Virus record (IMG/VR): IMGVR_UViG_3300029288_000145
Coordinates: 1-64,000 of that record
Reading direction: 5' to 3' (one strand)
DNA: 64,000 nucleotides
From: a virus
Taxonomy: Duplodnaviria > Caudoviricetes
How positions within the stretch are numbered: position 1 is the stretch's first letter; the number at the start of each line of letters is the position of its first letter. Below the pieces are notes generated by a model. The model saw only the letters and a list, made by a program, of their open reading frames with translations, did not search any database and had not been told where the DNA came from. The position numbers were made by a program, and so were the translations under genes. Below are positions 38,051 through 62,692 of the stretch, one piece after another.

Positions 38051-38051
38051 T

Positions 38052-40779: not shown

Positions 40780-40780
40780 A

Positions 40781-45637: not shown

Positions 45638-46222
45638 TTAATCGAGCTTGATGAACTGGGAATAATGTATTGTTGAGTTTGGATTGCTAAATTTTGCATC
45701 TAATTTATATGACCAGGGCTTCCATAATTTTGGCAGGAACCACTTGGCATCTTTAAACCGTGATATTGCAGAGATCATTGTGTCAGTGTAATTACATTTT
45801 AATAGGTTATTGCTATACAGGCAGGTATAATACCCATCGGTAAAATATTTTATATCCGGGGTGGGTGTTTCTTTTCGCATAGTATCCATCTGGGCAATCA
45901 TTATTCCCATAGTTGAATACTGCATTTCCATAACATATTCGGTGCTTCTTAATTTTATGCCAAGTAGTTCCAGTTCTTGCTTATATTTGTTTACTGTGCT
46001 GTTTAGCCTTTCAACTTCTTTTTTATCTACAATTACCTGAACCTTTTCGACAACAACCTGGTTTTTTTCATTACGGAAGGTGTCGATGCGTGTTATTAAA
46101 GACTTATTGCTGGTTTTTAATTGTGATATGGTGTTGTTTTTATCCTTTAATCTGATGACTAAAAAGACAATAGACAGTAGTAGAATAAGTGCTACCGCTG
46201 CCAGGATTATTTTTATCCTCAT
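45638..46222 (-). CDS. Spanin-like protein (N-terminal TM plus coiled coil)
   Basis: MRIKIILAAVALILLLSIVFLVI then coiled coil; follows two small TM genes. Confidence 0.55.
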   Translation of the reverse strand: MRIKIILAAVALILLLSIVFLVIRLKDKNNTISQLKTSNKSLITRIDTFRNEKNQVVVEKVQVIVDKKEVERLNSTVNKYKQELELLGIKLRSTEYVMEMQYSTMGIMIAQMDTMRKETPTPDIKYFTDGYYTCLYSNNLLKCNYTDTMISAISRFKDAKWFLPKLWKPWSYKLDAKFSNPNSTIHYSQFIKLD

Positions 46223-46467
46223 TATGTTTTGTTTTTATCTTTCCTTAGTTTCCGGCAACCGATATATACTGTCCATATACCGGCCACGATTGCAACGGAA
46301 AATGATGTCCATTGCAAAATGGTTGTTATGAAATGTTCGATAGGAAATGGGATTATTTCAACGGTTTCTTTCACCTGCCCAAATATCATTCCGGTAAAAA
46401 CACCACTGACCGTTAGGATAAGTGAGTTTATCTGGTCACTTAGCCATGTAATTAAGCGTGTAATCAT
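46222..46467 (-). CDS. Small two-TM protein (holin/antiholin candidate)
   Basis: 81 aa, two hydrophobic segments, basic C-terminus. Confidence 0.5.
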   Translation of the reverse strand: MITRLITWLSDQINSLILTVSGVFTGMIFGQVKETVEIIPFPIEHFITTILQWTSFSVAIVAGIWTVYIGCRKLRKDKNKT

Positions 46468-46529
46468 ATTATATTGGGATTTTTATATTGGTGTTTGTTT
46501 ATTTGGCACTTAATTAGGTTGTAATCACA

Positions 46530-46880
46530 CTACGATGGGATTTTCATTTTGGTTTTTATGATCTCCGCCAGGCGGTCAAATGAAAGGCCGACAATTAAGG
46601 CGTATGCGTAACTCCATTCCATGCCGATTATTTCCTTAGGGAATCGTATTGTCACGAATAATACAGCTATGGTAGCCAGGAAAGCTATCATCTTTGGCTT
46701 GTTGTTGTCCCACCAGTAGCATAAAGAAAATTGGTGTGGCGTTTCTGGGTTATGTTTTACAGCAGCTTTGGTCTGGAAATACCACTTAATGAATATACCC
46801 AGGGATGCGAATATAAAACTCGTAATTAATTCTACTGGGGTTAACGTTCCAAAGAGTGCTGATACGATTTCTCTTATCAT
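46530..46880 (-). CDS. Holin-like three-TM protein
   Basis: 116 aa with three hydrophobic segments. Confidence 0.5.
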   Translation of the reverse strand: MIREIVSALFGTLTPVELITSFIFASLGIFIKWYFQTKAAVKHNPETPHQFSLCYWWDNNKPKMIAFLATIAVLFVTIRFPKEIIGMEWSYAYALIVGLSFDRLAEIIKTKMKIPS

Positions 46881-46896: not shown

Positions 46897-46927
46897 CAAA
46901 ATTAATGAATTATAAGACGGTTTCAAA
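46897..46927 (-). promoter_or_regulatory. Promoter of the membrane/lysis genes, structural-gene class
   Basis: TTTG-N19-TAATTTTG. Confidence 0.7.
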
Positions 46928-46936
46928 ACTGACACC

Positions 46937-49900
46937 TTACATTACCATAAAGAAGTTATGATTTGTTGCTGGTGGCGATGGTGAAGCTGATATTGACAAT
47001 GACGGGCTACTTGATAATGATGTCGATGGTGAGTGTGATATTGAGGAACTTATACTCGTACTGAGTGAGGCAGATACCGAACTCGATGGCGACAGACTGA
47101 TGCTTGAACTTACAGAACTTGACGGTGATAGACTGATACTTTGACTTATAGAACTAGATACAGAACTACTTGGCGATAATGATATACTGGTCGATGGAGA
47201 GGCACTGATGCTTATAGAGATACTAGTGGAAGGTGATAACGAAATAGATTCGCTTATACTTGTACTCGGCGAGACACTTGCCGATATAGACGTACTCAGG
47301 CTTGATGAAATAGATAATGATGGAGATAGAGATAGAGATGTAGATATTGAACTAGACGGGCTTACCGATGATGAAGGACTACTAGACGGTGAACTTGATA
47401 TACTTGTAGAATGGGAACCCGAAAACGATTCAGATATACTTTCCGATGGTGATACGCTTGATGATAATGAATGACTTATGCTTTCAGAAATAGAGGATGA
47501 TGGTGAACTACTTGGTGATGAACTTGGTGATAATGATGGTGATGAACTTACACTCGTGCTTACAGACAATGATGGAGATAGGGATATAGATTCACTAGCT
47601 GAACTAGATGGTGATGTTGATACAGATTTTGACGGACTTATACTTGGTGAACTACTGATGCTTACGGATGGTGATGTCGATGGCGATACACTTCCCGAAA
47701 TACTACTTGATACAGACAGGCTTATTGACCCAGAGGGTGAACTGCTCGGACTTAACGATACCGATTCAGATGGACTAACTGATATTGAACTGGAAATTGA
47801 TAATGATGGCGATAGGCTGATACTTGATGAGGGCGATAACGATATGGATAATGAAGGACTTAATGATATTGAACCGGATGGTGAACTGGAAGGGCTGGAT
47901 GATACCGACCCACTTGGACTTGTACTTATTGATGTACTTACACTTGACGATGGTGACCTGGATACACTCGAACTTGGCGAGGTTGATGGTGATACTGAAC
48001 TTGATAGTGAACTACTGGGTGATTCTGATGGTGATGCACTGATGCTGGTACTTATACTTGTACTAGGAGATGTTGAGGCCGAACTGCTTATGGAACCAGA
48101 GGGACTTAATGACGGCGAACTAGATACCGATAGTGACGGGCTTAGGCTGATGGAGGAACTTATGGATAGGGATGGTGATAAACTTATCGAACTTGATATT
48201 GACCTGGACGGTGATAATGACACCGAGGAACTTACTGAACTACTTGGACTAAGTGATGGAGAAGTGCTTAAACTATGTGAAACCGAACTGGATATTGATA
48301 GCGATGGAGATAACGATACGCTTGACGACAATGATGTGGATGGACTCAGTGATACCGAACTTGATACCGAACTACTTATGGATAACGAAGGGCTTAACGA
48401 AATACTACTCGATATTGACCGGGAGGGTGACGATGATATACTTGAACTTATTGACGTTGAAGGTGACGAACTTATTGACCTGGACGCCGATGAGGAAGGA
48501 CTGACCGATATTGACGATGATGGTGATACAGATATTGATGACGAGGGACTTACTGATGTAGATGGAGAAGATAGAATAATTCCCCAGAAATTTACCTTTA
48601 CAGTGGTGGTGGCCGGAACACTTAAAGATGCAGAAGGACTGCTAGATAAGGATGATGACAATGAAGAACTGGCGGAACTGCTGACGGAACTACTGGCGGA
48701 ACTGCTGGGTGATGAAGATACAGAACTCGATATTGATAGGGACGGACTTAAACTTATACTTGTACTGGGTGACAGACTTGGTGATGTTGATGGACTGGCT
48801 GAACTTGATGGCGAAGAACTTACAGAGCTTGATATAGATGTTGAGTGTGATCCTGAAAACGATTCCGATATGCTTGATGAAGGTGACACGCTACTTGACG
48901 GTGAACTACTTACAGAACTAGATAAAGATGTACTCGGCGAACTACTTTCAGACGTACTCACAGAACTTGATATACTTGTTGACGGAGATATGCTTTGTGA
49001 TGGAGATAGACTTGGACTGGATGATAGTGAAGTTGATGGTGAGTTGGATACAGACGTGCTTACACTCTCGCTTGGTGACGATGATAGGGAAGAACTTATA
49101 CTCGTACTGGGAGATACAGAACTCGACCTGGACGAACTTGGACTGCTGGATATTGACGTGGATGGCGATGTTGAAATTGATGATGACAAACTTCGTGACG
49201 GCGAATGTGATCTTGATGAACTCACCGATGTTGAAGGAGAACTGCTTACACTTATTGACGGTGAAGTGGAAACGGAGGATGACACACTTATACTTGGCGA
49301 CAGACTGATACTTGTCGATGGTGATGTTGATGGTGAAACGCTGCTTGACACAGAACTACTCGGCGATGAACTTATTGACCGGGATGGTGACAAGCTGGGA
49401 CTGGACGATACTGATTCTGATGGACTAGATGATACAGAACTACTTATTGATGTGGAAGGACTGACAGAAGATGATAATGAGGTGCTTACAGAGGATGATA
49501 CAGATTCACTCTGGGAAGAGCTGGGACTGGATGACACACTCCTACTTGGACTTAACGATATAGATAATGATGGAGACAGGCTTGGTGAACTCGAAATTGA
49601 TGAACTTGGACTTAATGAAATAGAACTGCTGATACTTAATGACGGCGACAATGACACTGAACTTGATATACTACTTGATATTGAGCTACTAATACTGGTC
49701 GATGGTGAGGCTGATATTGAAGAACTCACACTTGTACTTGGTGAAACCGAACTGGATACAGAAGAACTTGGTGAAGAACTCAGTGAACTACTTGGTGACA
49801 ACGATACCGATGAGGATAATGAGGTACTTACAGAGGACGATAATGACCGGGACACTGACGTTGATGGCGACACCGAACTCGACACAGACGTACTCGGTGA

Positions 49901-51541
49901 CGTACTTACACTTGTACTTACAGAACTTGACGGGCTTGTTGATACTGATGAACTTGGGGAGGTGGATAATGAACTGCTTATACTTTCACTTATTGACGAA
50001 CTTATTGAACTGGATGGACTGCTTGATATTGATAGACTTGGCGATAATGATATTGAACTACTTTCACTACTACTGATAGAACTACTTATAGATAATGAAG
50101 GACTTAACGAGGCCGAACTGGATGGTGATAAACTGATACTTGAAGAAATAGATAATGATGGTGACAGGCTTACGCTACTTGACGGCGACAGACTGATACT
50201 TGTTGATGGTGATAGGCTGGCCGATGGACTAGCCGATACCGATGTTGATATTGACGAGGATATTGATGATATGGGATTGCCCAAAAATATAACGACATAC
50301 GCTCCATATATTCCTATTTCACCATTAACAGGGACAACAACGGTGGGTAGATAATTTTTGCCATCATTAAGGGTTAATGCTACCGTCCTTACCCTTTCCT
50401 TATTTGAATTAGCGAATTCTATTTTGGAATTTGTTATATGGGCATCTACGGTGCCTGAGTCAGCATTATCCTCACCCAGATCGACATAAATATCACCATC
50501 AACAGATTCGTTTCCAGTGACCTCAAAATACGGCGTATATGTAGAGTATGCGTTGGCATCAAAAAACATCCTTCCCTCTGTGTGTTCCTGCGCCACACCT
50601 ATACCCGCATAACCCCGGCTGATTCTATAATAAACGTCTATGGCGGTAACATTTATTACCCGGAGATATAATCTTGCCTCACTTATCCTGGCGTTGTAAC
50701 TTTCACTGCCAGATTTTATTTTTACCTCTATCAGATCGCCGTTATCAAAGTTTGTAGCATTGTTGGCGAAACTGACCGAACAAAGTGTTGGCGTGGTACT
50801 GTTGGTAGATACTTCACTTCCGGTTATTGCGTTTCCTGACGAATCATATAAACAGGCATATGCTGTGGATGCTGCATTTTCAGAGTACATAACAACCTCA
50901 AATGTCCATACATTACCAGAACCAATTGTAGAGAACCTGTTTTCATCCTTCTTAAAATATGCGTATCTTTTTGGTATATCTTGGGTATAAGATGTGCTTG
51001 TTGTGGAATCAACAGCAGTACCATTAAACCGTGAGGATTCTCCAAAATCACTTCCAATAAGGGGTATTTGTATTCTTGTATTTACGAACTGATTCTGTTG
51101 TACTATTATCCGTGATGAATATACCTTTACCTCGTTATTTACCGATGTGCCGGGTATTTCTATGTCATAATCATTTGCACCACCAACCATAGATAGTGCC
51201 GCTGTGCGAAACCGGGTTGGCACCGTTGTCCCTCCCGGAACGGGTATGGCATCAATAATACTAACACCATTTACCAGGCGTGGGGAATAACTGCCGGCGT
51301 TGTCGTTTGTGGCAACTATTTCCCAGTAATATGTGCCATTATAGTAATCAGCGGTATCAATATTTATCCTTGTCCTTGTAAATGTTGTATCGGTGGTTGA
51401 ACTGGTACAGGTAAGGCTACAATTATCCAGGGGTATTTCAAATATTGGGGAACCAGCACTTGGGCTTGGCGAACTCGACAGTGATCTTGAAGGAGATACT
51501 GAGGCTGAAGGTGAACTCGATATGGATGTTGATGTAGACAT
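46937..51541 (-). CDS. 1534-aa serine-rich repeat protein: about 390-aa globular domain plus about 1,100-aa (Ser-X)n stalk
   Basis: Ser at alternate positions from about aa 424 to 1522, one break (VPATTTVKVNFWGII); TAATG-coupled to the upstream gene. Confidence 0.8.
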   Translation of the reverse strand: MSTSTSISSSPSASVSPSRSLSSSPSPSAGSPIFEIPLDNCSLTCTSSTTDTTFTRTRINIDTADYYNGTYYWEIVATNDNAGSYSPRLVNGVSIIDAIPVPGGTTVPTRFRTAALSMVGGANDYDIEIPGTSVNNEVKVYSSRIIVQQNQFVNTRIQIPLIGSDFGESSRFNGTAVDSTTSTSYTQDIPKRYAYFKKDENRFSTIGSGNVWTFEVVMYSENAASTAYACLYDSSGNAITGSEVSTNSTTPTLCSVSFANNATNFDNGDLIEVKIKSGSESYNARISEARLYLRVINVTAIDVYYRISRGYAGIGVAQEHTEGRMFFDANAYSTYTPYFEVTGNESVDGDIYVDLGEDNADSGTVDAHITNSKIEFANSNKERVRTVALTLNDGKNYLPTVVVPVNGEIGIYGAYVVIFLGNPISSISSSISTSVSASPSASLSPSTSISLSPSSSVSLSPSLSISSSISLSPSSSASLSPSLSISSSISSSESSSISLSPSLSISSSPSSSISSSISESISSSLSTSPSSSVSTSPSSSVSTSVSTSPSTSVSSSVSPSTSVSRSLSSSVSTSLSSSVSLSPSSSLSSSPSSSVSSSVSPSTSVSSSISASPSTSISSSISSSISSSVSLSPSLSISSSISLSPSSSISSSPSLSPSLSISLSPSRSVSSSPSSSQSESVSSSVSTSLSSSVSPSTSISSSVSSSPSESVSSSPSLSPSRSISSSPSSSVSSSVSPSTSPSTSISLSPSISVSSSVSTSPSISVSSSPSTSVSSSRSHSPSRSLSSSISTSPSTSISSSPSSSRSSSVSPSTSISSSLSSSPSESVSTSVSNSPSTSLSSSPSLSPSQSISPSTSISSSVSTSESSSPSTSLSSSVSSSPSSSVSPSSSISESFSGSHSTSISSSVSSSPSSSASPSTSPSLSPSTSISLSPSLSISSSVSSSPSSSASSSVSSSASSSLSSSLSSSPSASLSVPATTTVKVNFWGIILSSPSTSVSPSSSISVSPSSSISVSPSSSASRSISSSPSTSISSSISSSPSRSISSSISLSPSLSISSSVSSSVSLSPSTSLSSSVSLSPSLSISSSVSHSLSTSPSLSPSSSVSSSVSLSPSRSISSSISLSPSLSISSSISLSPSLSVSSSPSLSPSGSISSSASTSPSTSISTSISASPSESPSSSLSSSVSPSTSPSSSVSRSPSSSVSTSISTSPSGSVSSSPSSSPSGSISLSPSLSISLSPSSSISLSPSLSISSSISVSPSESVSLSPSSSPSGSISLSVSSSISGSVSPSTSPSVSISSSPSISPSKSVSTSPSSSASESISLSPSLSVSTSVSSSPSLSPSSSPSSSPSSSISESISHSLSSSVSPSESISESFSGSHSTSISSSPSSSPSSSVSPSSSISTSLSLSPSLSISSSLSTSISASVSPSTSISESISLSPSTSISISISASPSTSISLSPSSSVSSSISQSISLSPSSSVSSSISLSPSSSVSASLSTSISSSISHSPSTSLSSSPSLSISASPSPPATNHNFFMVM

Positions 51542-53370
51542 TACCCTTGTTGATATACCCTACAGGCTACTGTATCGGCACCATCTTTATAATTGGTTAA
51601 ATCAGAAATTGTTGCTGTTAATGTAAAGTCCGTGTCCTCCGGGGAGGTGTTGTCGGAATCAATGGTATCCCATGTTAGTGTTGATCTATTATATATTTGT
51701 AGATATACGGTCACCAGTGGTGGGGGACTATTAGTTTGTAATACACAGGTAAATATTCCAGAATTAAACGTGCCTACAAAATTTTTAAACTGGTGAATAG
51801 CATATTTCCCAGATGCACTTTGATCTACCCAGTCGTTATCTACTGCTGCAACATATATATAATCTATTGCCGAATATGACGTGCTTAGGTCATCATCTGC
51901 CGCTGGTAATGCCAAGTAGTCTCCCCGTGAATAGTTTTCTGTGGAGGGTGACGTTGATGAACTTATGCTTGTGGATGGAGATAGGGATAATGATGAACTT
52001 GGTGAACCTGATGGTGAACTACTTAAACTTATACTTACCGAACTTGATAATGAACTACTTAGTGATAACGATGGTGATTTGCTTATACTACCACTTACCG
52101 AACTACTAACACTGCTTGATGGTGATGGACTGGCCGATATTGATGTTGATATTGAACGACTTGGAGAATGTGAGGCTGAGGCTGATGGTGAACTGCTTAT
52201 GCTACTACTGGGTGTGCTTACTGCAATATATGAAACCAATCCGGTTTTTACATACCTTGCTGTAGGGGTTCCGCTTGGTGTAACATCTATATCTATCGCA
52301 TCGTTTGATGTAATATTATCTGTGTGAATAGTATCGTTTGCTGTTGTTGCTGCATCTGCAATAGTACATGTAAGAGTGCCATTTCCAGCATTTATACGAA
52401 GTGTTATTGCATAAGATTTTCCTGCTCCTGGTGTCCCACTTAAAGCTGCATATAGTTTTTTAAATACTGAAGTATATCCACGTTGATATGAATTAGCCTC
52501 TGTTGATATTGGCGAAAATAAAATAGTTCTATTACAGTAATGATACCTTGTAGCACTTGTTGAGGTATTAACATTAGTACCACCAAGCAATAAACTCTCC
52601 CCGTTTATGGTTGCAACAAAAGATAATTTTCCATAAATTCTCGGTCTTGCCGATGGAGTGTTTAAAGGCACAATTTCTAATGAAACCAAATCCCCTGCAA
52701 CCACGGCAACATTATGGGTCGTATCGCTTCCCGTGGTATCGTCTGCTGTTATCGTACAGGTTAATGTTGTTGCTACCCCGTTAAGATAAAGAGTAAAAGA
52801 ATACGCATCTGGCGAAGTTCCGGGGTCGGCACTTAATGAGGTAAAAAGCCTGTTTATCGTCCCTGCCGTTGGAATTATTTGAGACACCTGCACTTCTGTT
52901 GTTGATGTAACGCCTACACCGCCTCCCGTTACGCCCTGATATTGTGTGGCTGAATTATCACACACACCACCAAACATCAAATTACTTTCATTGGCTGTTG
53001 TGCCATCGAATTTTAATACCCATGAACAGTTTGTGACTGTTGGTGTATTTGTAGGCACTGATTTTAAATAAATAATATCTCCTTCAGCAAAAGCTACTCC
53101 TGCACCTGAATAAGTACCGCCAACAGCAGCATCGGCAATATGAACTGTTATAGCCGTATCAACTCCGTTTTTAACAACGGTAAAATCATAAGAAGTACCC
53201 GCCCCCGGTGCTGCACCAAGTTCTACATAGAAATAACTATACGTTCCAACGCAGGCAAGTTGCTTTAATACAGCCACATTAGTATTCCATGTGTCACCAC
53301 CTTGGACTACGTTGTAACTATTGGCACTATTTGATAGTGTCCCGCCCCTGCCTGTTATGCCTTGTATCAT
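51541..53370 (-). CDS. Virion-type protein: three repeated beta domains, about 90-aa (Ser-X)n linker, C-terminal domain
   Basis: Repeats YVELGAAPGAGTSYDFTV / FTSLSADPGTSPDAYSFTL / YAALSGTPGAGKSYAITL. Confidence 0.7.
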   Translation of the reverse strand: MIQGITGRGGTLSNSANSYNVVQGGDTWNTNVAVLKQLACVGTYSYFYVELGAAPGAGTSYDFTVVKNGVDTAITVHIADAAVGGTYSGAGVAFAEGDIIYLKSVPTNTPTVTNCSWVLKFDGTTANESNLMFGGVCDNSATQYQGVTGGGVGVTSTTEVQVSQIIPTAGTINRLFTSLSADPGTSPDAYSFTLYLNGVATTLTCTITADDTTGSDTTHNVAVVAGDLVSLEIVPLNTPSARPRIYGKLSFVATINGESLLLGGTNVNTSTSATRYHYCNRTILFSPISTEANSYQRGYTSVFKKLYAALSGTPGAGKSYAITLRINAGNGTLTCTIADAATTANDTIHTDNITSNDAIDIDVTPSGTPTARYVKTGLVSYIAVSTPSSSISSSPSASASHSPSRSISTSISASPSPSSSVSSSVSGSISKSPSLSLSSSLSSSVSISLSSSPSGSPSSSLSLSPSTSISSSTSPSTENYSRGDYLALPAADDDLSTSYSAIDYIYVAAVDNDWVDQSASGKYAIHQFKNFVGTFNSGIFTCVLQTNSPPPLVTVYLQIYNRSTLTWDTIDSDNTSPEDTDFTLTATISDLTNYKDGADTVACRVYQQG

Positions 53371-53373
53371 TTC

Positions 53374-53604
53374 TTAGTTTATCTTTTTCGTCTTTGTCCA
53401 GTCAATTGTTGTTTCTGAACCTTTTTTAGTAATGATTTTTTCTTTAATTATCTCCTGTTTTTGTAATTCCATCCATCCGTTTAGCTTGACATTATTATCA
53501 ATCAGATAAGCCCATGCCTCTGCACGTTCTTCTTCTGATGGATTTAACAGTGTAATTACACTTTCATCATTAAGTATGATGTTTGTTTTCCTGTTGCTTA
53601 TCAT
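53374..53604 (-). CDS. Hypothetical protein
   Basis: 76 aa, in operon. Confidence 0.5.
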   Translation of the reverse strand: MISNRKTNIILNDESVITLLNPSEEERAEAWAYLIDNNVKLNGWMELQKQEIIKEKIITKKGSETTIDWTKTKKIN

Positions 53605-54514
53605 GTTTTTTTATTTTTATCAGATCATCGTCAGTCCATCCCGGAATCGGCCAGAATTTCTCCACAAGCCAACTTAATGGGTGAACTCCATTAAATTTGT
53701 TGTTAAGCCACAGGTCTTTTGAATACCTACGTGCCTTTTCCTGTGCTTTCCCTGACATGGGGTAGGGAAATGAGAAGTCACCTCCCTGGGTGCGGAACAT
53801 ATGTCCGAACCATGTTTTTTTATTACACACCAACCGGCCTCCGGTCAGCCACGTTTTACAGGCTATTTCCGTTCCCTGTTGTCCCCACGAACCGTGTTCT
53901 TCATCACAAAAGTTATACTTCCAGTATCTCTCCCTTGTCAACATCCAACAGGCACCGATAAGGGACATGTTTTCAACAATGTCCCCTTCTGGCTTGCGGT
54001 CATTCCAATATTGGAAATGTAGGTTGTTGTCAAACCGCCACTGGGAGGTTTTTATTCCCCTATTCGATTTCCAGATAACTTCTTTATGTGTTGGCTTTCC
54101 ACATTCTTTACAGACGCCGGAGGGACTCATATATCTCCTGTGTCCATCCTCACACACCCAGTCGAATACGTGCCAGTTATACATGAGTGGTACAACAGTC
54201 CAGTCATCCTGCATGTCGGCCATTAGTTTGACATCAAACCCTTCGTCAAAGGCACAGTGGGCATCACACTTCATAACGTATTTTGCCTGTGATAGCCGAC
54301 AACATTGATTGGTAATTGCCCTCTGGCCTATTGCTTCGGGTACATAAAATATTGTCAGGTCGGGATGTTGCGGTATGGGAATATGATTCCACTTACCGTC
54401 CAAACCAACGATTATTTCTGTGGCACCTCGTTTATTTTTAAGAATGTCCTCAATAGTGTTGAGTAACCATTCCTCATTTCGTGCCGGTATTAATATGGAC
54501 AGGTCGTACTTCAT
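53570..54514 (-). CDS. GT-A glycosyltransferase (GT2/GT27-like)
   Basis: LSILIPARNE, KCDAHC (DxH), WGQQGTEIACKTWLTGGRL...FGHMFR. Confidence 0.85.
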   Translation of the reverse strand: MKYDLSILIPARNEEWLLNTIEDILKNKRGATEIIVGLDGKWNHIPIPQHPDLTIFYVPEAIGQRAITNQCCRLSQAKYVMKCDAHCAFDEGFDVKLMADMQDDWTVVPLMYNWHVFDWVCEDGHRRYMSPSGVCKECGKPTHKEVIWKSNRGIKTSQWRFDNNLHFQYWNDRKPEGDIVENMSLIGACWMLTRERYWKYNFCDEEHGSWGQQGTEIACKTWLTGGRLVCNKKTWFGHMFRTQGGDFSFPYPMSGKAQEKARRYSKDLWLNNKFNGVHPLSWLVEKFWPIPGWTDDDLIKIKKHDKQQENKHHT

Positions 54515-55032
54515 AGATTTTTCAGGTCTTTAAAGTTTGATAAAACTGTTGCCCAGGGACGACATTCCTTCCAGTCGAACCTGTATTTGAAATTGGAATA
54601 CATTTCTTCCGTATATCCATAGGTATCCGGTTCTTCTGTGTCATGTAAAACAAGGAACTCTGCACTGTCCTTAAACCTGACAACATCACGTCCCCGGTAT
54701 CCCCAGGTATAGTCCTTTTGTGGTACGGCGTGGTCTATAAGTATAACTCCAGCCCTGTCTTTAATGTTTACGTCTGTCATCCAGTCATTTACCTTTACGA
54801 TACGGTGCATCTTGCTCTGGAACTGCTTGGCATACAGGTAGAATTGTTCTTCGCTTTCATAGGTGATAAGTTTGCGGCCAAATCCTTTACACATCCAGTG
54901 TAAGAATGGCGTACTACCAATGCCACAGCCGAACTCAATGACCGTTCCCGAACTATTGATAATAGTTTCATAGAGCATCCACATATGGGAACTCCATCCT
55001 TTGCCGACATTAACTTTGTGTTTAAGATACAT
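54511..55032 (-). CDS. Small class I SAM-dependent methyltransferase-like protein
   Basis: VIEFGCGIGST, ITYES, VILIDH. Confidence 0.7.
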   Translation of the reverse strand: MYLKHKVNVGKGWSSHMWMLYETIINSSGTVIEFGCGIGSTPFLHWMCKGFGRKLITYESEEQFYLYAKQFQSKMHRIVKVNDWMTDVNIKDRAGVILIDHAVPQKDYTWGYRGRDVVRFKDSAEFLVLHDTEEPDTYGYTEEMYSNFKYRFDWKECRPWATVLSNFKDLKNL

Positions 55033-55729
55033 ATAGATAGTTTTTTTTAAGGTTCGTTATTTCTCCCCAGTAGGGGACATCTGTTAATTGACTTTTCATA
55101 TCCGCCCTAACACTCCAGCTAACACCCTTGCCGGTTTTAAATGTTATACACGGATTTTCAAGAGATACCCTTACCGTGTTTTTGTCATGGGTGGTAAATC
55201 GCCTCCGGAATGGCATATTATGATTTTTATCGCCGGCAAACCATTGTGGCATACCCTCAAAGAATATTTCACATTGTTTGATAAATAGTTCCCTGTCAAT
55301 AATCTGGGCACCATCGGAATCACTTTTAGGGTAGTAGTATGGATACTCTTTGGCATCAAATACTACCTGTATATTTTTCATCCTATATGCTTTACCAGGT
55401 TCACTGGGTTCAAAGGCAAAGTAATCGGGTGGATACAGATAGTCAGATTCAGCAAACACCAGATATTGAGAGGTGGCTTCCAAGGCTCCTAGATATATTT
55501 GCCGGAACTCGTTAAGATAACTCTGGCCAACATCACCAACACATATATTGTGCCCTATATCCATAGGTTTTTGGGTAACACTTATCATTGGCAGCCCACA
55601 CCTATTATGCAACATTGTTTCAACAACCTGTCTTTCAAAACGTGGGTTTTCCCTGTTGCTGCTGTAATATATTATTGTTTTATTTAACATTTGCATTACA
55701 AGTTTTACATAGTGGCATATCAAAATCAA
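55022..55729 (-). CDS. GT-A fold glycosyltransferase-like protein (paralogue 1 of 3)
   Basis: PMISVTQKP, NEFRQIYLG, VFAESDYLY; start may be ATG 55690. Confidence 0.65.
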   Translation of the reverse strand: MILICHYVKLVMQMLNKTIIYYSSNRENPRFERQVVETMLHNRCGLPMISVTQKPMDIGHNICVGDVGQSYLNEFRQIYLGALEATSQYLVFAESDYLYPPDYFAFEPSEPGKAYRMKNIQVVFDAKEYPYYYPKSDSDGAQIIDRELFIKQCEIFFEGMPQWFAGDKNHNMPFRRRFTTHDKNTVRVSLENPCITFKTGKGVSWSVRADMKSQLTDVPYWGEITNLKKNYLYVS

Positions 55730-56414
55730 GATTCATGTGCCTTTTCCTTAATGGTTTGGCAATTTTAATGATCTCAGCGAGACTTTGTTTAGTAATATCG
55801 CCAAGGATAACTTCGCCGTTGTAGTCCAGGCAGCACATTGACACTCTTCCATCCCATAATATACAGGTATGTTTGCTGAAGGCGTAACAGGGCACCCTGA
55901 CCACTCCCTCTTTTTGTTTGGGGTCGTCAAAGTAGTCGTTAGCCCTGTAAGTGCTTACTTTTGACCGGTGTCCCCATTTTTTCTTAAAGGCTTTTTGCTT
56001 TTCAATGTCTGTATCAAGAAATACACGAGATATTCTTACATAGAAATCGGCATTGTCAAGCAGTTTCCTTATGTTTTTTTCATAAGCATCTACCCCGTTG
56101 TCACTGCAATTTATTCCGTTCAGACATTTGTATTTCAGCACTCTGTCAACATCCATAAGTCCTCCGTTTGTAGACAGGTTTACTTTCACACCCTGTTCTT
56201 CCATATAATCCAACCATTCGTATATCCTGTCAAAAGCAAAGGGGTCACCATACAGATACGGACTGTACTGTTTGATATTGTTTTTCTTACCTTCGGAAAT
56301 GATGTGGTGAAATAATTCATCACTCATTTCTCCCTTTGGTCTCGTCACACGAAGGCCAGGACAATAGGAACACTTCAGGTTACACTTGTAGGAACTTTCA
56401 AATATAAGTCTCAT
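55680..56414 (-). CDS. Radical SAM protein with SPASM/twitch domain
   Basis: CNLKCSYC (CxxxCxxC), GDP, LSTNG; PC...DGRVSMCCLD...LGDI...CKTC. Confidence 0.9.
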   Translation of the reverse strand: MRLIFESSYKCNLKCSYCPGLRVTRPKGEMSDELFHHIISEGKKNNIKQYSPYLYGDPFAFDRIYEWLDYMEEQGVKVNLSTNGGLMDVDRVLKYKCLNGINCSDNGVDAYEKNIRKLLDNADFYVRISRVFLDTDIEKQKAFKKKWGHRSKVSTYRANDYFDDPKQKEGVVRVPCYAFSKHTCILWDGRVSMCCLDYNGEVILGDITKQSLAEIIKIAKPLRKRHMNLDFDMPLCKTCNANVK

Positions 56415-57142
56415 TAGCGAAAATGTTTTAAAATTTCTTCAGCCCTTCCCCAGTATGGGATGTCATAGGCTTGTATCTCTCCATAGCTTTTGCGGTGTTT
56501 CCTCTGCCGTTCTTCACTTGCCCAGTCGTGGTTTACCTGTATGAAGGCAACCTTGGCAGCATGGGTGTCGCAACAATTCCTTAACCCCACACCCAGATTT
56601 CTCTCAACCATACCCCGGCCAACTTCACCAACCCTGTTTTCAGGGCATCCATCAGGCCATTTTGTATAACGTTCTTCTAGGGCATCAATAAGATACTCTC
56701 TAGGAGCGATCAGGGCGGCGTTGCTTAAACGGTTCCTCCAGTGATAGACCGGAATACCCCAGGTGAATAACGTTGCCCTGTTGCGATCATACAGAACCTC
56801 ATTATCACATGGACGCCTGAAGGTGAAGTGAAATTCGTGATACAGGCAGTCATCCTCGGCTACCGCTACATATTTTGTTTCCGCCACCTTACAAGCTCTT
56901 AACATTTGCCTGTAGATGTTGTCAGTACACTTTTTTCCATCATCCAGAATGTTGTGCCCGAAATTTAACGGCTCCCTGGACACGCTGATAATAGGAGTGT
57001 CCTTTATTGCCTCCAGTAATACCTCTTTTTGATAAGCGGCAAAGTGTGGCTTATGCTTTTCAAGCATTGAGGCCGTTAAATAGATTACTGTCATTTGTTC
57101 TATCATACGAATAATTTTAAGTATTTGTCCGGTGATTCCCAA
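56414..57142 (-). CDS. GT-A fold glycosyltransferase-like protein (paralogue 2)
   Basis: PIISVSREP, NIYRQML, VAVAEDDCLY. Confidence 0.7.
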   Translation of the reverse strand: MGITGQILKIIRMIEQMTVIYLTASMLEKHKPHFAAYQKEVLLEAIKDTPIISVSREPLNFGHNILDDGKKCTDNIYRQMLRACKVAETKYVAVAEDDCLYHEFHFTFRRPCDNEVLYDRNRATLFTWGIPVYHWRNRLSNAALIAPREYLIDALEERYTKWPDGCPENRVGEVGRGMVERNLGVGLRNCCDTHAAKVAFIQVNHDWASEERQRKHRKSYGEIQAYDIPYWGRAEEILKHFR

Positions 57143-57798
57143 TAGGGTATAGTATATGCCTGTATTCTTTTCATCTGTTTTTTATGCCTGTGTTCAATAG
57201 CCTCTTTGCCAGTGTTTTCGTTTGTGAAGTAGTCGTGATCAATTTGTATAACTCCATTATAACTCCAAAATGGGAGTGTTTTTGCCGGGGTTAGTCCTAA
57301 ATACTTTTCTGATTTACCTATTTCGTTGCAGTGTTCTACCGGCACCAGTGGGTATTTATCAAATCTTTCTTCGAGACTTTTTATCACAGCTAACCGGCCT
57401 CCGACCATAAAGGCGTTTATGTAACTCTGTTTCTTTTCCATAGAGTAGATAGGCTTTGCCCAGGTATAAAGGTTCCACCTGTACTGATTATATGCTATCT
57501 CATCTATTTGCGGTGTAAAGGCGAAAAAGTGATCAGAAGCATATAAACAGTCATCCTCGGCTATGGCAATAAACGGTGTTGTTGCCAACTTTGCGCCTCT
57601 TAATATCTGCCTGTAGATATTATTGACGCCAAGTCCTCCGTCCTGGATGATGTTTTTGTCACCGAACTTCATGGGTTCACGAGATATGGTTATTATTTCA
57701 CACCCATTGGAGGCTGTTAATAGAACATCCATCTGGTAACTATGCCATTTTTCAGGAACCCGGTTTGCTGTTAAATATAATATTGTTAAGTTACTCAT
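57103..57798 (-). CDS. GT-A fold glycosyltransferase-like protein (paralogue 3)
   Basis: EIITISREP, NIYRQIL, IAIAEDDCLY. Confidence 0.7.
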   Translation of the reverse strand: MSNLTILYLTANRVPEKWHSYQMDVLLTASNGCEIITISREPMKFGDKNIIQDGGLGVNNIYRQILRGAKLATTPFIAIAEDDCLYASDHFFAFTPQIDEIAYNQYRWNLYTWAKPIYSMEKKQSYINAFMVGGRLAVIKSLEERFDKYPLVPVEHCNEIGKSEKYLGLTPAKTLPFWSYNGVIQIDHDYFTNENTGKEAIEHRHKKQMKRIQAYTIPYWESPDKYLKLFV

Positions 57799-58703
57799 AC
57801 TGTTTTCCTTATTATTGCTGTTTCATAACCAAGAGCTTTAAGTATCCCTGCCCGGTGGCATCCGTCTATAAGGCGGTTGTCGGTACGTACTACAAGAGGA
57901 CTTTTCAATCCTTTGAGCTTTACATTATTATACAAGTCCAGTTTACTTAATAAGAAATTGTCTGCTTCTTTTTCAGACCATTTTTTACTCCTGTATTTGC
58001 GCAAAAAGTTGGCGTATTCGGACTTCATGGGACTATGGCTGGTATAGAAATCCATTGTGCTGTCACTATTTCCTATTGATTTAATAGGCACCCGGTCAAG
58101 GTGTTTGCTTTTAAATATGATAGACGACATCTCCCTGGGTGACGGGTCTCCTTCTGGATTTATCCAGGGAATATAACCGGTTTCCTCCCAGTCTTTGAAG
58201 TATTCCCTGAGAGCTTCTATGGATGATAACGCCCTCCATGATTTGTATGTTGTTTTTACGGTGACGATAAGGCAATATCTGGTCTTGTATTGTAGTTTGT
58301 CTAGATATTCAAGCCAATCAATGATTCTTAGGTGGTAGTGGACGTTTACAAGTACAGTAACATCAGCCAATGGAAGGAAATTAGTGGCTTTTGTTAGGTC
58401 GTCTAATATTATGTTGTAATCAAGGTCATGATCATCACGGTATTTTATTCCTCGTTCCCATGCGCCTTTATCTGATTCAACTCCTATTACCCGTTTATAT
58501 CCAAGTTCTTTTGCGAGACCCAGATATAATCCGGCATTGCACCCACCTTCAATGTATGTCAGTTCTTTACATAGTTTTGGTAGTAAGGGAAGTACAAAGT
58601 AGTTCCATTTTCCCACGTCCCAGAATTTGCTGTTTTTTTCAAGTTCATACCTTTCGTTTGTGGGATCGCCAGGCAGGTGTTGATATACGTTGTATTCTTT
58701 CAT
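57795..58703 (-). CDS. Class I methyltransferase fused to a ParB/Srx-like domain
   Basis: YIEGGCNAGLY..VIGVESD; C-terminal GLKSPLVV...LIDGCHRAG. Confidence 0.7.
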   Translation of the reverse strand: MKEYNVYQHLPGDPTNERYELEKNSKFWDVGKWNYFVLPLLPKLCKELTYIEGGCNAGLYLGLAKELGYKRVIGVESDKGAWERGIKYRDDHDLDYNIILDDLTKATNFLPLADVTVLVNVHYHLRIIDWLEYLDKLQYKTRYCLIVTVKTTYKSWRALSSIEALREYFKDWEETGYIPWINPEGDPSPREMSSIIFKSKHLDRVPIKSIGNSDSTMDFYTSHSPMKSEYANFLRKYRSKKWSEKEADNFLLSKLDLYNNVKLKGLKSPLVVRTDNRLIDGCHRAGILKALGYETAIIRKTV

Positions 58704-59477
58704 TTATATCCCCCACCTTGGTTTAATTATATTGTTATAGTAATTTTCCCATGTCTCCCGGCTGTAATTGAATGATGCCCTGGAAAGTTCCCCAGAATAA
58801 TGGTGTGTGCGCTTAAAACTCCTGTGTTTGTGTGCGTGGAAGGTGTTTTTGTTTAACATCAACTTACCGCCACGTACCCATGTTTTAAACACCATCTCAT
58901 GACTGTCCTGGTAGTGCGTACCATATCCCTCGGATTGTAATTCCTTGATACAGAAATCCCACCACGATTTTTTCATAATCCATACAGAACCCTGGATGGC
59001 CATGTTCTCGGCAATGGCAACATTTTTTAATTGTTCATCCCGTTCCGGCCATGCCACAGAACTGAATTTTTGTTCCTTGCCGACAATTAGTAGTTTGCAG
59101 AAATTTACCGGTGGTAAGTCCATTATTTTCCATTTCTCCGGGTCGAGATAGTACCTTGTTGGTGCCACTATCCAGTTGTCCTCAAATGTTTCGGTAAGTT
59201 TTTTGTCGTATCCTTCACTAAACAGGCAGTGTTCATCAGTTCTCATGATGAATTCTCCCTTGGCAACGGCAACTCCATGATTTATAGCATTACGCATACC
59301 ATGTGCTTGTCCGTTGTGGACGATTTTTATTCTCCTGTCATTTCTCAATTGTTTTTCCGGCCAATAGCCATCTAAGACTGCAATGATCTCAACATCTCCC
59401 TCTGCATTGTCAAGTAATGAGTCAATGGTTGGGTGAAGAAACGGGTCTTTGTAGCTTGGAATTATTACAGAAAGCAT
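58704..59477 (-). CDS. GT-A glycosyltransferase (GT2/GT27-like)
   Basis: LSVIIPSY, VLDG, RTDEHC (DxH), EMVFKTWVRGGKL...HAH. Confidence 0.85.
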   Translation of the reverse strand: MLSVIIPSYKDPFLHPTIDSLLDNAEGDVEIIAVLDGYWPEKQLRNDRRIKIVHNGQAHGMRNAINHGVAVAKGEFIMRTDEHCLFSEGYDKKLTETFEDNWIVAPTRYYLDPEKWKIMDLPPVNFCKLLIVGKEQKFSSVAWPERDEQLKNVAIAENMAIQGSVWIMKKSWWDFCIKELQSEGYGTHYQDSHEMVFKTWVRGGKLMLNKNTFHAHKHRSFKRTHHYSGELSRASFNYSRETWENYYNNIIKPRWGI

Positions 59478-59491
59478 TTATTATTATTTTA

Positions 59492-60367
59492 TTATGGTTC
59501 ATTTGCTATTGATACAAAGTCAAAGGTGTCCAAATTTGTGTCTCTTATGAATCCAAGATACATACATTTACCGGCAATGGTTGTCCCTGGTAAAAGTCCA
59601 CACTTGTCTTTAAATTTTCCACCATATGTTAATAACCTGGGCACACCGTTGTCATATATCCTGATCCTTTTGTTTCTTCCATTGGCAACAACGCCGGTGG
59701 GATTGTTTATGAGTAGGTCGGTGTCAAGTGCCGTGAATTCAATGTCGTCATAGGAACCGAAGTCTGGCGTAAATGGACTGGTGGTGGTGGTTAATGTCAA
59801 TACCCTGGGTGCGGGAATAACGGGTGTTGTCAGTTCTAATCCGGTTTCACCGGCATTTACTGTAGGAACTTTGCCGGCATTACCGGTATAGGATTTTGTT
59901 ATGCTGTCGGTAAGACTTAGAAATGATTGTACGGAATAAATATCATCCGGCCATGAGTAGGTTAAATCCACCTGTGGCAGATATTGGGCTTTTATCGTTA
60001 TGACGAATATTATAGCAACCGGAGGAGACGCAGGAGTACCACTAAGAGCGTAAGCACCTGAAGTATTAAGAGTAGTCGTAATAAGAACGCCACCCGCTGT
60101 ATATGCAGGGGTTTCTGTAGGTACACCATTAATTTCAGTAATAATAGCATCAGCCAACCCCGGAAACCTGTCGGGTGAGATTGTGTAAAGCGTAGGAGAT
60201 ACTGAGCCACCCCCGACTTTTGGGACTGTAACTGTTCCTGTGTTTGCTGTAATACTGTTCCAAATCGGGATAACATAGTCTATGTTTTTTAATAAGTTAA
60301 TATCTGTTTCATAGTCCTTGTGGTCGTGCATTAACCATCCAAACCGCTTGTCTATTTGTATAGCCAT
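59492..60367 (-). CDS. Fibre-type structural protein
   Basis: Thr/Gly-rich; C-terminal FTPD..LINNPTG..GRNKRIRIYDNG..RLLTYG module typical of phage fibre tips. Confidence 0.55.
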   Translation of the reverse strand: MAIQIDKRFGWLMHDHKDYETDINLLKNIDYVIPIWNSITANTGTVTVPKVGGGSVSPTLYTISPDRFPGLADAIITEINGVPTETPAYTAGGVLITTTLNTSGAYALSGTPASPPVAIIFVITIKAQYLPQVDLTYSWPDDIYSVQSFLSLTDSITKSYTGNAGKVPTVNAGETGLELTTPVIPAPRVLTLTTTTSPFTPDFGSYDDIEFTALDTDLLINNPTGVVANGRNKRIRIYDNGVPRLLTYGGKFKDKCGLLPGTTIAGKCMYLGFIRDTNLDTFDFVSIANEP

Positions 60368-60370
60368 AAA

Positions 60371-61113
60371 TTAAGATGTTTTGTGAAGTACCCATCCGGT
60401 ATATGATCTTAATGTTGCTAATACGCCAGCACCAGTGTCTATGGGGTTATCATACCTGTCACTTTTATAACACTCGAACTTTGCTATACCAGAAGAACTT
60501 TCGTCAATTCTTATTACCCTCCATTTGGGGTCTGTAAATGCTGTGCCTTGTTCAGCCGGATAACACATATATGTCATGCTATTGACGGTATCCTCGACAA
60601 TATATGGGATGCTGAATACATCCCGCAACACCTGTAATATTTCCTGGTCGATCTTCATTATGCAATGGCAATGTATGTTAATGTTCCCGGAGCAACGGCG
60701 GTGATAGCAAACCCATTCTTGGTCAGACTTGATGGAACGCCAACACCAACACTATCAACATCGTTTATTAATAATGTGTATGTTGCAGTAGGAAGTGGTG
60801 CATCAAATGTGATTGTATTTGCACCTGTGGTAAGTTCAACCTGTCCCTCGGCAATGCTTGTTTCGTGGCAGTATCCCTCAATGGCCGTAACGAAGTCGTC
60901 AAATGTTGCTGTGGATGGTGACGATGTGTCAAGCCAGTTCAAAATTACCTTGGCTGGTTCATAAAAGCCATCACCTGATATGTATAGGTGTACTTCGTTT
61001 TTTGCCGGAACCGGGTTTATTGAACTTATGTATCCCTTATTGACGATACGTTTGCGCCCTGAATTCCTTAATATTGTTATGTAATCCGTTCCGTTTGTTA
61101 CTGATGTAGTCAT
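60371..61113 (-). other. Two small structural-type CDS (60371..60658; 60658..61113)
   Basis: First has the YP..GTA..DPKWRVIRI motif common in small virion proteins; TAATG coupling. Confidence 0.5.
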
Positions 61114-61140
61114 TTTTATACTTTTTAATTGTTATTAATA

Positions 61141-62646
61141 TTAACCTGCACCTGATGGACTGGTTGATAAGGATGTTGATACTGAGGATGATATACTTGT
61201 TGATGGACTAAATGAAACCGAACTTGATACAGAGGTAGATTCACTGCTTGATATTGATGTCGATGGGCTTACAGATGAGGATGGACTGCTGGATATACTT
61301 GTGGATGGCGATATTGATATGGAAGTAGAAAGACTTGTTGATATTGAAGTCGATGGACTTGTAGATGGTGATGTGGATATACTGGTTGAAGGACTTGTAG
61401 AAATTGATGTGGAGGGACTGATAGATATTGATGTCGATATGCTGGTAGATGGACTATTTGATATAGATGTTGAAGGACTGAGGGAGATTGATGTGGACGG
61501 TGATGTTGATGGACTGGATGATACCGAAGTTGAAAGACTTGATGATATTGAGGTTGAGGGGCTGATAGAACTGGATAAAGAACTCGATATACTGCGTGAC
61601 GGGGAACTTGACCTACTTAGCGATGGCGATGTTGATATAGAAGTACTTGGTGATATTGATACACTGCTCGACAAACTGCGTGATGGTGAAGTTGATGGAC
61701 TTAATGACGGTGATGTTGATACTGATGTCGATGGACTCAATGACGAGGATATACTTGACGACACACTTATTGACGGCGATGTTGATATTGAGGTCGAGGG
61801 TGATATTGAAACGCTACTGGAAACACTTGTCGATGGTGAACTGGATACACTGGTCGATGGGGAAGTACTGATACTTGTCGACACCGATGTTGATACCGAA
61901 CTGGATACACTGGTTGATGCAGAACTTGATATTGAACTGGAAGGACTGGTTGATATACTGCTTGATATTGACAACGAAGGGCTGACAGATAATGATGGGC
62001 TACTGGATACCGATGTAGACGGACTGTGTGATATTGAACTGGATATACTTGTTGAGGGTGAAAATGCGTCCCTGTGTGTAACCTGCCAGATGTTTGCAAC
62101 AACATTTATGGCTCTTTCCATTACGGTGCCGGCAGCCGTCCAGCTTTCCCGGTAGTCACCATTTGACAACGTGCCATTTACGGTGTAGTATATGTAATCA
62201 CCGTCAACATACGTGTTCCCGTGTGGGTTTGATGCGGCGATTATCTTGGCAAGTAATTGTGTAGTATTCAGGTCAATAGACATGAGGCACTGACCTAATT
62301 TGGTATCATTGTATGTAAGCAATGACATTGTTGAATTAACCGGCATTGCTTTGAAATAAATTATTTCATCACAACTTATGATATTCAATGCGTTTACCAA
62401 TTCACCACCCTTGGTAAGTACAGGAAGTTCAACTCTTGTTCCTGGGACAAACTCATCGACCATAGCCAATAAGCTGGCATATGTTTCGGTTGTAATGTAT
62501 TTGAAGGTCAGAAAGGCTTCCTGGTATTCAAATTGACGGGTACTCCCCTTGTCTCTGATGTTTGACATACGACCCACATTGAAATACTTAGTCTCGCTGT
62601 GTGCTGTATTGTTCTTTTTTGTGGTGGTTAAATAGGCGAACTGCAT
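61141..62646 (-). CDS. Protein with about 195-aa N-domain and about 305-aa (Ser-X)n tail
   Basis: Ser at alternate positions from about 62062 to 61147; first gene after the promoter at 62662. Confidence 0.8.
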   Translation of the reverse strand: MQFAYLTTTKKNNTAHSETKYFNVGRMSNIRDKGSTRQFEYQEAFLTFKYITTETYASLLAMVDEFVPGTRVELPVLTKGGELVNALNIISCDEIIYFKAMPVNSTMSLLTYNDTKLGQCLMSIDLNTTQLLAKIIAASNPHGNTYVDGDYIYYTVNGTLSNGDYRESWTAAGTVMERAINVVANIWQVTHRDAFSPSTSISSSISHSPSTSVSSSPSLSVSPSLSISSSISTSPSSSISSSASTSVSSSVSTSVSTSISTSPSTSVSSSPSTSVSSSVSISPSTSISTSPSISVSSSISSSLSPSTSVSTSPSLSPSTSPSRSLSSSVSISPSTSISTSPSLSRSSSPSRSISSSLSSSISPSTSISSSLSTSVSSSPSTSPSTSISLSPSTSISNSPSTSISTSISISPSTSISTSPSTSISTSPSTSPSTSISTSLSTSISISPSTSISSSPSSSVSPSTSISSSESTSVSSSVSFSPSTSISSSVSTSLSTSPSGAG

Positions 62647-62661
62647 TGCTTTTTTTGTTTA

Positions 62662-62692
62662 CAAAATTAGTAAATAATAACTGCGTTTCAAA
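62662..62692 (-). promoter_or_regulatory. Promoter of the Ser-repeat/glycosyltransferase operon, structural-gene class
   Basis: TTTG-N19-TAATTTTG. Confidence 0.7.

Follow-up and report, generated by a model that had tools for sequence, protein, structure and literature searches.

A candidate phage cassette for mucin-like appendages that pairs alternating Ser-X proteins with GT27-like glycosyltransferases

The DNA considered here is a stretch of 64,000 nucleotides (nt), referred to as the window, at the start of a contig of 76,930 bp from a virus of the Caudoviricetes (IMG/VR record IMGVR_UViG_3300029288_000145). On its minus strand, from 62646 to 46937, 15 tightly coupled genes with gaps of -50 to +27 nt form an operon that is examined below as a candidate cassette for making mucin-like glycoprotein appendages. 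The gene order is SerX-A; proteins of 151, 95 and 291 amino acids (aa); the glycosyltransferase GT2a; a 302-aa methyltransferase; paralogues 1 and 2 of a family with the GT-A glycosyltransferase fold; a radical S-adenosylmethionine (SAM)/SPASM enzyme; GT-A paralogue 3; a 173-aa methyltransferase-like protein; the glycosyltransferase GT2b; a 76-aa protein; SerX-B; and SerX-C. An initial annotation made from the sequence had listed the Ser-X proteins, glycosyltransferases, methyltransferases and radical SAM enzyme of this operon, and all of these genes are present on the minus strand at the coordinates given there. The three proteins that contain alternating Ser-X tracts are the following.

61141..62646, minus strand: SerX-A, 501 aa, a 195-aa globular head followed by a C-terminal tail of 152 unbroken Ser-X units
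51541..53370, minus strand: SerX-B, 609 aa, a 395-aa head, 46 Ser-X units and a 130-aa C-terminal beta-sandwich domain
46937..51541, minus strand: SerX-C, 1534 aa, 14 Ser-X units, a 400-aa globular part, and tracts of 275 and 266 units

In the tracts of all three proteins, Ser or Thr alternates with another residue, and the alternation keeps its phase from end to end of each run. The six Ser codons are all intermixed, and among the in-frame words of SerX-C only 3 of 1526 18-mers and none of the 30-mers recur. The mixture of codons and the near absence of repeated DNA words indicate that the alternation is maintained by selection at the protein level and not by recent slippage of the DNA. In a set of 193 Ser-X proteins, the alternating position is Ser in 99.1% of cases, the X position is most often Pro (32%), Ala (17%) or Val (13%), followed by Ser, Ile and Leu, and the unbroken Ser phase of some relatives extends beyond 500 units. 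Long antisense open reading frames (ORFs) within the genes, of 958 aa inside SerX-C (47478-50354, plus strand) and 284 aa inside SerX-A (61301-62155), remain open because of the 6-nt periodicity of the tracts and are not genes.

The Ser-X proteins of the operon have no hydrophobic N-terminus, signal peptide or membrane segment in a hydropathy scan, and their sequences end without a wall anchor, in agreement with the initial annotation. The SerX-A head has no Pfam family, and the globular part of SerX-C has no relatives in IMG/VR in a single-sequence scan. For the SerX-B head, PHROG gives a weak match to a tail fibre (0.0034). Fourteen other Ser-X proteins, with differing heads, carry the 130-aa end domain of SerX-B at their own C-terminus. 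A model of this domain (predicted local distance difference test, pLDDT, 77) is a beta-sandwich whose nearest solved structure, with 129 residues aligned at Z 8.1, is a chain of the phi812 baseplate, ahead of many carbohydrate-binding modules at Z 5-6. The recurrence and the fold match of the modelled domain fit a head-stalk-tip fibre for SerX-B.

Eight enzymes are encoded between SerX-A and SerX-B, none of which has a membrane segment or signal peptide in the hydropathy scan.

58704..59477, minus strand: GT2a, soluble GT27-like GT-A glycosyltransferase with a DEH motif and a C-terminal His (PF00535, 5e-17)
53570..54514, minus strand: GT2b, soluble GT27-like GT-A glycosyltransferase with D84-A-H86 and H238 (PF00535, 2e-7)
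57103..57798, minus strand: GT-A paralogue 1, 231 aa, unnamed family, AlphaFold2 model with GT-A fold, E81-x-D83 invariant
56414..57142, minus strand: GT-A paralogue 2, 242 aa, 39% identical to paralogue 1
55022..55729, minus strand: GT-A paralogue 3, 235 aa, 25% identical to paralogue 1 and of the same family
57795..58703, minus strand: class I SAM methyltransferase, 302 aa, with a 100-aa C-terminal extension (Methyltransf_23, 0.0065)
54511..55032, minus strand: methyltransferase-like protein, 173 aa, with a GCGIG SAM motif (weak Methyltransf_23, 0.09; PHROG methyltransferase, 0.006)
55680..56414, minus strand: compact radical SAM/SPASM enzyme, 244 aa (PF04055, 6e-9; PF13186, 6e-12)

The best-matching relatives of GT2a and GT2b among solved proteins are the polypeptide N-acetylgalactosaminyltransferases (ppGalNAc-Ts) of family GT27. 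Single-sequence searches already point toward these enzymes. The GT2a family profile matches ppGalNAc-T4, T12, T1, T9 and T2 across positions 3-255 (E 1e-12 to 1e-7), and the top 14 PDB hits of the GT2b family profile are all ppGalNAc-Ts, with ppGalNAc-T1 the best at 9e-11. In an alignment of GT2b with GalNAc-T1, DAHC falls on DAHC and the WG..E....W..GG....GH.FR block (residues ~175-245) falls on the WGGEN...GHVFR region. Residues D84, H86 and H238 of GT2b are invariant in 12 sequences, while 25 sequences of the GT2a family share an invariant D81, a nearly invariant H83, and invariant H216 and H218. Among GT-A enzymes, the replacement of DxD by DxH is confined to families GT27 and GT60, both of which glycosylate Ser/Thr of polypeptides (PMC7185993). 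Both the profiles and the motifs place GT2a and GT2b in this DxH clade. PF00535 is the only Pfam family found in the two proteins, their maximum hydropathy is 0.78 and 0.53, and they end just past the catalytic domain at 257 and 314 aa, with neither a ricin-type lectin domain nor a membrane anchor. Since these two elements are lacking, the enzymes are described here as GT27-like and not as members of the family in the full sense.

Most of 250 strong GT2b-family representatives are multi-domain proteins of 450-1350 aa, and some contain two or three GT2b-like stretches. In relatives, GT2a and GT2b frequently occur as fusions with further GT-A domains or with methyltransferase domains; in five phage contigs (L002, L004, L005, L007 and L011) a domain of the unnamed GT-A family is fused to the C-terminus of the GT2b homologue. 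Residues ~120-142 of GT2b itself comprise a Cys/His-rich insert (C..H or C, then CxxCG), possibly a zinc ribbon, that is conserved in the close GT2b family and missing from its paralogous branch and from the ppGalNAc-Ts.

The three GT-A paralogues have no Pfam, PHROG or NCBIfam family, and their profile finds no sequence relative in the PDB. An AlphaFold model based on 12 homologues (pLDDT 86) has a GT-A fold. The best Foldseek matches of the paralogue 1 model are BoGT6a, alpha-1,3-galactosyltransferase, SpsA and TarP, at an E value of 4e-7 and template modelling (TM) scores of 0.45-0.56. Five GT-A enzymes had been counted in the initial annotation, and this number holds, with two of them recognised by PF00535 and three by the modelled fold.

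The remaining enzymes are candidates for tailoring steps. Both methyltransferases are weak matches by sequence. For the 302-aa protein, the earlier description as a methyltransferase has further support from Atlas features, which place it at 0.99 with a viral methyltransferase cluster, and from its structure, which aligns with class I methyltransferases at TM 0.5-0.55. A suspected ParB-like motif (DGCHR) at the C-terminus of this protein, which hinted at a role on DNA, was dropped because Pfam at E <= 1 is empty there, and matches of the 302-aa protein and the radical SAM enzyme to designer pentatricopeptide entries of the PDB have no passing stretch and are considered spurious. The Pfam matches of the radical SAM enzyme confirm its presence in the operon. 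It contains C11-x3-C15-x2-C18 (CxxxCxxC) and seven C-terminal Cys, and all its NCBIfam equivalog scores are far under the cut-off. Among solved proteins it is nearest, weakly (7e-4), to BtrN, which is similar in size and oxidises an alcohol by radical SAM chemistry.

The association of these enzymes with Ser-X proteins was surveyed with the profile of the unnamed GT-A family, which has relatives in 298 IMG/VR contigs, 80 of which were examined. Proteins were counted as Ser-X when their Ser/Thr-X alternation runs unbroken for 15 units or more. A Ser-X protein is present in 68 of the 80 loci. The enzyme block is flanked by 4 kb or more on each side in 32 loci, and all 32 have one; in all 12 loci that have none, the contig is cut near the block. 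All 123 Ser-X ORFs are on the strand of the enzymes, with a median gap to the block of 42 nt. The co-occurrence of Ser-X genes and this enzyme set across phages, which the initial annotation had proposed to test, is borne out over unrelated phage backbones in the loci examined. It also appears when loci are selected by GT2b (a Ser-X protein in 8/9 evaluable viral loci) and in metagenome-assembled genomes (MAGs), where 19 of the 21 loci with both flanks contain one.

A recurrent order is observed in these loci, consisting of a short Ser-X protein, GT2a, GT-A, optional methyltransferases and radical SAM enzyme, GT2b, and one or more long Ser-X proteins, and the window follows the same order. Homologues of the 173-aa protein are present in 36 of the 80 viral loci. 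The radical SAM enzyme is found in only six of them, which suggests that its tailoring step is optional. Genes for nucleotide-sugar metabolism, namely a dehydratase, a UDP-GlcNAc 2-epimerase and a nucleotidyltransferase, are added in the loci of relatives. The contigs that harbor the module range from 4.5 to 175 kb and share no detectable backbone protein with this phage, while their GT2b proteins are 48-64% identical. When the 193 Ser-X proteins are compared by their globular parts, outside the repeats, 103 clusters result. Given the lack of a common backbone and the number of clusters, the linkage of enzymes and Ser-X proteins is not a matter of inherited synteny. Four phage loci (L013-L016) contain homologues of the SerX-B head, 38-43% identical, in which other repeats replace the Ser tract; none of the four has the enzymes.

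The distribution of the module extends beyond phages. The GT2b profile has 174 matches in species-representative genomes; the best 80 of these are 48-63% identical and derive mostly from Patescibacteria MAGs, with some from DPANN archaea and some from MAGs labelled Gammaproteobacteria. On a complete 917-kb Woesebacteria chromosome (CP066693, locus L172), the module is clearly chromosomal, located among cellular genes and adjoining giant Ser-X proteins. A CapD-type dehydratase, a UDP-GlcNAc 2-epimerase, an epimerase and a carbamoyltransferase adjoin it at L172:1894-6665, which points to a modified sugar of the 6-deoxy-N-acetylhexosamine (HexNAc) type in that relative. A further locus, L155 of Saccharibacteria, is prophage-like, with the module between a tail-collar-domain protein and an integrase. 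The cassette is thus a widespread mobile module in phages that is also present in Patescibacteria chromosomes and prophages. Among 50,697 deposited phage genomes, no match was detected for GT2b (tblastn, E <= 1e-5), for the unnamed GT-A family (E <= 1e-3), or at the DNA level for the operon (11 kb, megablast).

The genomic setting of the operon is that of a phage late region. The contig encodes a large terminase, a primase-helicase and a helicase loader, and PHROG virion structural proteins are present at both of its ends. The closest deposited relatives of the terminase, from podophages of Flavobacterium and Cellulophaga, are only ~27% identical to it. A scan based on the large terminase, meant to supply a base-rate control set, found no relatives. 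Upstream of the Ser-X block are structural proteins (phrog_14543, 13977 and 14478), then three large proteins that include a charged giant of 2408 aa. Downstream of SerX-C, at 45638-46880 on the minus strand, three small proteins with membrane-like segments probably form a lysis block; one of 194 aa has a strong N-terminal membrane segment (hydropathy 3.44), and there are weak spanin and holin PHROG matches within the group. The late-gene order of this phage resembles that of T7-like phages, and by this analogy the Ser-X genes would occupy the position of the T7 tail fibre.

The motif TAnnTTTG, which we take to be the -7 promoter consensus of Bacteroidota, is enriched in the window, with 99 copies as compared with 73 +/- 9 in shuffled sequences. 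Scans of the window for sigma-70-type promoters and terminators gave no signal above chance. Copies of the box are found at both ends of the operon.

62662..62669, minus strand: TAATTTTG, -7 promoter box of Bacteroidota type, 16 nt 5' of the SerX-A ATG
46897..46904, minus strand: next intergenic TAATTTTG box, just past SerX-C and ahead of the lysis-like genes, which marks the end of the unit

With boxes before SerX-A and after SerX-C, the earlier proposal that one promoter (62662) heads one transcription unit is reasonable, although transcripts of the 2408-aa gene, 41 nt upstream, may also run on into the operon.

The operon also encodes four small or medium-sized proteins, three of which follow SerX-A and one of which precedes SerX-B.

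60658..61113, minus strand: 151-aa protein, no family found
60371..60658, minus strand: 95-aa protein
59492..60367, minus strand: 291-aa protein, weak PHROG matches to structural and tail proteins (2e-5 to 5e-3)
53374..53604, minus strand: 76-aa protein, no family found in Pfam, PHROG or NCBIfam

Among the three proteins that follow SerX-A, which the initial annotation took for small virion proteins, PHROG structural matches, which are weak, are limited to the 291-aa protein; on these matches it is possibly a virion protein.

Several other features of the contig are recorded here for completeness. An intein that contains a LAGLIDADG homing endonuclease splits the large terminase (31335-34856, minus strand, 1173 aa), with Hom_end_hint at residues 332-428 (2.7e-15) and LAGLIDADG_3 at residues 594-669. 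A serine recombinase is encoded at 38016-38804 on the plus strand (Resolvase PF00239, 1.7e-16, plus a Recombinase domain), and a 256-aa protein at 40096-40866 on the minus strand contains a Cpn10/GroES domain with additional N- and C-terminal parts. The 2408-aa protein (contig positions 62688-69914, minus strand), directly upstream of the operon, is highly charged and without a family match; judged by its position, it is probably an internal or ejection protein. Other DNA-related accessory genes comprise a C5 methylase domain and a PAPS-reductase-like gene.

Considered together, the sequence evidence suggests that this late-operon cassette probably makes mucin-like glycoprotein appendages, by O-glycosylation of the alternating Ser residues in the cytoplasm and incorporation of the resulting stalks into fibres. 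In the infected cytoplasm, the soluble GT2a and GT2b would start the chains on the alternating Ser of SerX-A, SerX-B and SerX-C, probably with a HexNAc or hexose taken from a UDP-sugar of the host. The three GT-A paralogues would then extend the chains, and the two methyltransferases and the radical SAM/SPASM enzyme would tailor them. The expected products are stiff, hydrated and protease-resistant bottlebrush stalks. In SerX-B such a stalk would join the head domain to the distal beta-sandwich domain, and the products would be built into the particle as fibres, consistent with a T7-like tail-fibre gene position. Protease protection of the extended stalk is a plausible benefit by analogy with the staphylococcal SdgA/SdgB system described below, and stiffening and hydration are possible others. 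The analysis establishes which genes are present, that the tracts are constrained as protein, how the enzymes are related and that they co-occur with Ser-X proteins; the acceptor, the sugar, the order of steps, the location in the virion and the benefit to the phage are all features that we infer. The earlier interpretation that the phage glycosylates its own Ser-X filaments is supported by the enzyme families, the co-occurrence, the tract-free control loci and the position between virion genes and a lysis-like block.

Several points weigh against this interpretation. Glycosylation and virion location are both computational predictions, and the latter is drawn from gene order together with weak matches, namely the PHROG tail-fibre match of the SerX-B head and the fold match of its end domain. 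GT2a and GT2b are without the lectin domain and membrane anchor of true ppGalNAc-Ts, and similarity to GT27 informs the donor and metal site more than the acceptor. Animal ppGalNAc-Ts usually prefer Thr, whereas the site here is almost always Ser. No nucleotide-sugar genes were detected among the phage ORFs scanned. The linkage was measured from the enzyme side only, with an enzyme-free control of four loci. From the side of the tracts, a scan of IMG/VR with 301 residues of the SerX-C tract matched 596 stretches, none of which survived tblastn confirmation, probably because of low-complexity filtering; their number is comparable in order to the 298 contigs with the enzymes, at most a crude hint of linkage.

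Three alternatives have been considered. The strongest, although unlikely, is that the Ser-X proteins are glycosylated by the cassette and are not parts of the particle, being released or cell-associated as a matrix, a decoy or a coat of the infected cell. Non-virion use of the module does exist somewhere, as seen from the Woesebacteria chromosome with its cellular neighbours and giant Ser-X proteins, and no virion family is recognisable in the globular part of either SerX-A or SerX-C. However, signal peptides and membrane segments are lacking in the Ser-X proteins, and their genes lie between virion genes and a lysis-like block. Moreover, homologues of the SerX-B head that carry other repeats are fibre-like, the end domain of SerX-B is similar in fold to a chain of a phage baseplate, and the prophage-like module of L155 adjoins a tail-collar-domain protein.

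A role for the enzymes in building or altering a glycan that is not linked to protein, such as a host envelope polysaccharide or a free glycan, with the Ser-X tracts acting as plain flexible linkers, is less probable still. Phage glycosyltransferases that alter the surface glycans of the host are well known, and GT2 and GT6-like enzymes usually use glycan or lipid-linked acceptors. In contrast, the operon contains no membrane-bound transferase, flippase, polymerase or priming enzyme, and the DxH clade is the one that glycosylates polypeptides. For plain linkers there would be no need to keep the Ser phase unbroken for as many as 275 units in this phage and more than 500 in relatives, nor would they account for strict same-strand, adjacent co-occurrence over unrelated backbones. 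Finally, hypermodification of the phage DNA with glycosylated modified bases, unrelated to the Ser-X proteins, is a very improbable function of the enzymes: although phage DNA glycosylation exists (PMC13326640, for example) and the genome contains the C5 methylase domain and PAPS-reductase-like gene, no hydroxymethylase or thymidylate-synthase-like gene was detected among the ORFs scanned, the cassette is within a late structural operon, and the tight linkage to Ser-X proteins would be left unexplained.

Several known systems resemble the proposed Ser-X cassette in part. Among solved proteins, both phage families have their closest relatives in the GT27 ppGalNAc-Ts, which glycosylate mucins at dense Ser/Thr tracts, and the similarity spans the entire catalytic domain (E 1e-10 to 1e-12). 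Members such as GalNAc-T1 (1xhb), T2 (4d0t) and T4 (5nqa) have the GT-A domain, the D-x-H, the Gal/GalNAc-T motif and the C-terminal metal-binding His in common with the phage enzymes. The phage enzymes differ in having no ricin-type lectin domain, membrane anchor or secretory pathway, in the Cys/His-rich insert of GT2b, and in a site that is almost always Ser. The three paralogues share a GT-A fold and an acidic E-x-D with GT6 enzymes (BoGT6a, alpha-1,3-galactosyltransferase) and with SpsA and TarP, their nearest structures; the TM scores are only 0.45-0.56, there is no sequence similarity, and SpsA and TarP score like GT6.

The serine-rich repeat proteins (SRRPs) of Gram-positive bacteria, such as GspB, Fap1, PsrP and SraP, were the parallel drawn in the initial annotation. 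The likeness of the substrates stands, as both have alternating Ser-X tracts hundreds of residues long, and so would the cytoplasmic glycosylation by enzymes of neighbouring genes and the stepwise extension by several transferases, if the phage pathway is as proposed. GT2a also has an N-terminal GT-A half in common with GalT1 of the Fap1 pathway. In contrast, the machinery is not homologous, and the initiating enzymes look like those of eukaryotic mucin-type glycosylation. The phage operon is without the GT-B pair GtfA/GtfB, with only GT-A-type hits in Pfam, NCBIfam and PHROG scans of the operon proteins; no accessory Sec-like gene was detected among the phage ORFs scanned, and no LPXTG wall anchor on the Ser-X proteins. 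SRRPs are anchored in the cell wall, whereas the phage Ser-X proteins are products of a late operon.

Glycosylation of phage-particle proteins is known from a few mycobacteriophages, and glycosylated particles are also known among the giant viruses of algae and amoebae. In the mycobacteriophages, phage transferases glycosylate their own virion proteins, according to passages in PMC12582341 and PMC10568470 that refer to Freeman et al. 2023. No homologous transferase was detected in the tblastn search of deposited phage genomes with GT2b and the unnamed GT-A family. In staphylococci, two dedicated soluble enzymes, SdgA and SdgB, O-glycosylate Ser-Asp repeats stepwise, and the sugar shields the stalk from proteolysis (PMC3794999). 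These dipeptide repeats likewise have Ser at every second position; the X position is Asp in place of the Pro, Ala, Val, Ile, Leu, Ser or Thr of the phage, the enzyme families differ, and the substrates are cell-wall proteins and not phage proteins.

O-glycosylation of Ser repeats and glycosylation of virions are therefore known already, while the enzyme family, the acceptor grammar of the phage and the portable cassette have not been described. No publication that pairs Ser-X proteins of virions with GT27-like enzymes of phages was found in a search that left most subscription journals outside its range. The system is no one-off, being a mobile module that is widespread in hundreds of phage contigs.

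To our knowledge, the polypeptide O-glycosyltransferases of the DxH clade (GT27 and GT60) have so far been treated as a eukaryotic invention. We tentatively raise a different possibility, namely that they are an old mobile family of prokaryotes and viruses whose native role is to convert strictly alternating Ser tracts into mucin-like bottlebrush stalks, both on the fibres of phages and on the giant proteins of ultra-small cells (Patescibacteria and DPANN). In this scenario, phages would shuttle the cassette between hosts, and the family may be the source of mucin-type O-glycosylation in eukaryotes. The origin of the GT27/GT60 clade thereby becomes directly testable.

If the proposed function of the Ser-X cassette is correct, a dedicated and portable kit of acceptor plus enzymes would be common in uncultured phages and Patescibacteria. 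The small, soluble relatives of mucin-type initiators, expressible in bacteria, would provide tools for making defined mucin-like glycoproteins. Such a kit would also give a new picture of phage fibres, with consequences for adsorption, adherence to mucus and biofilms, protease resistance and immune recognition.

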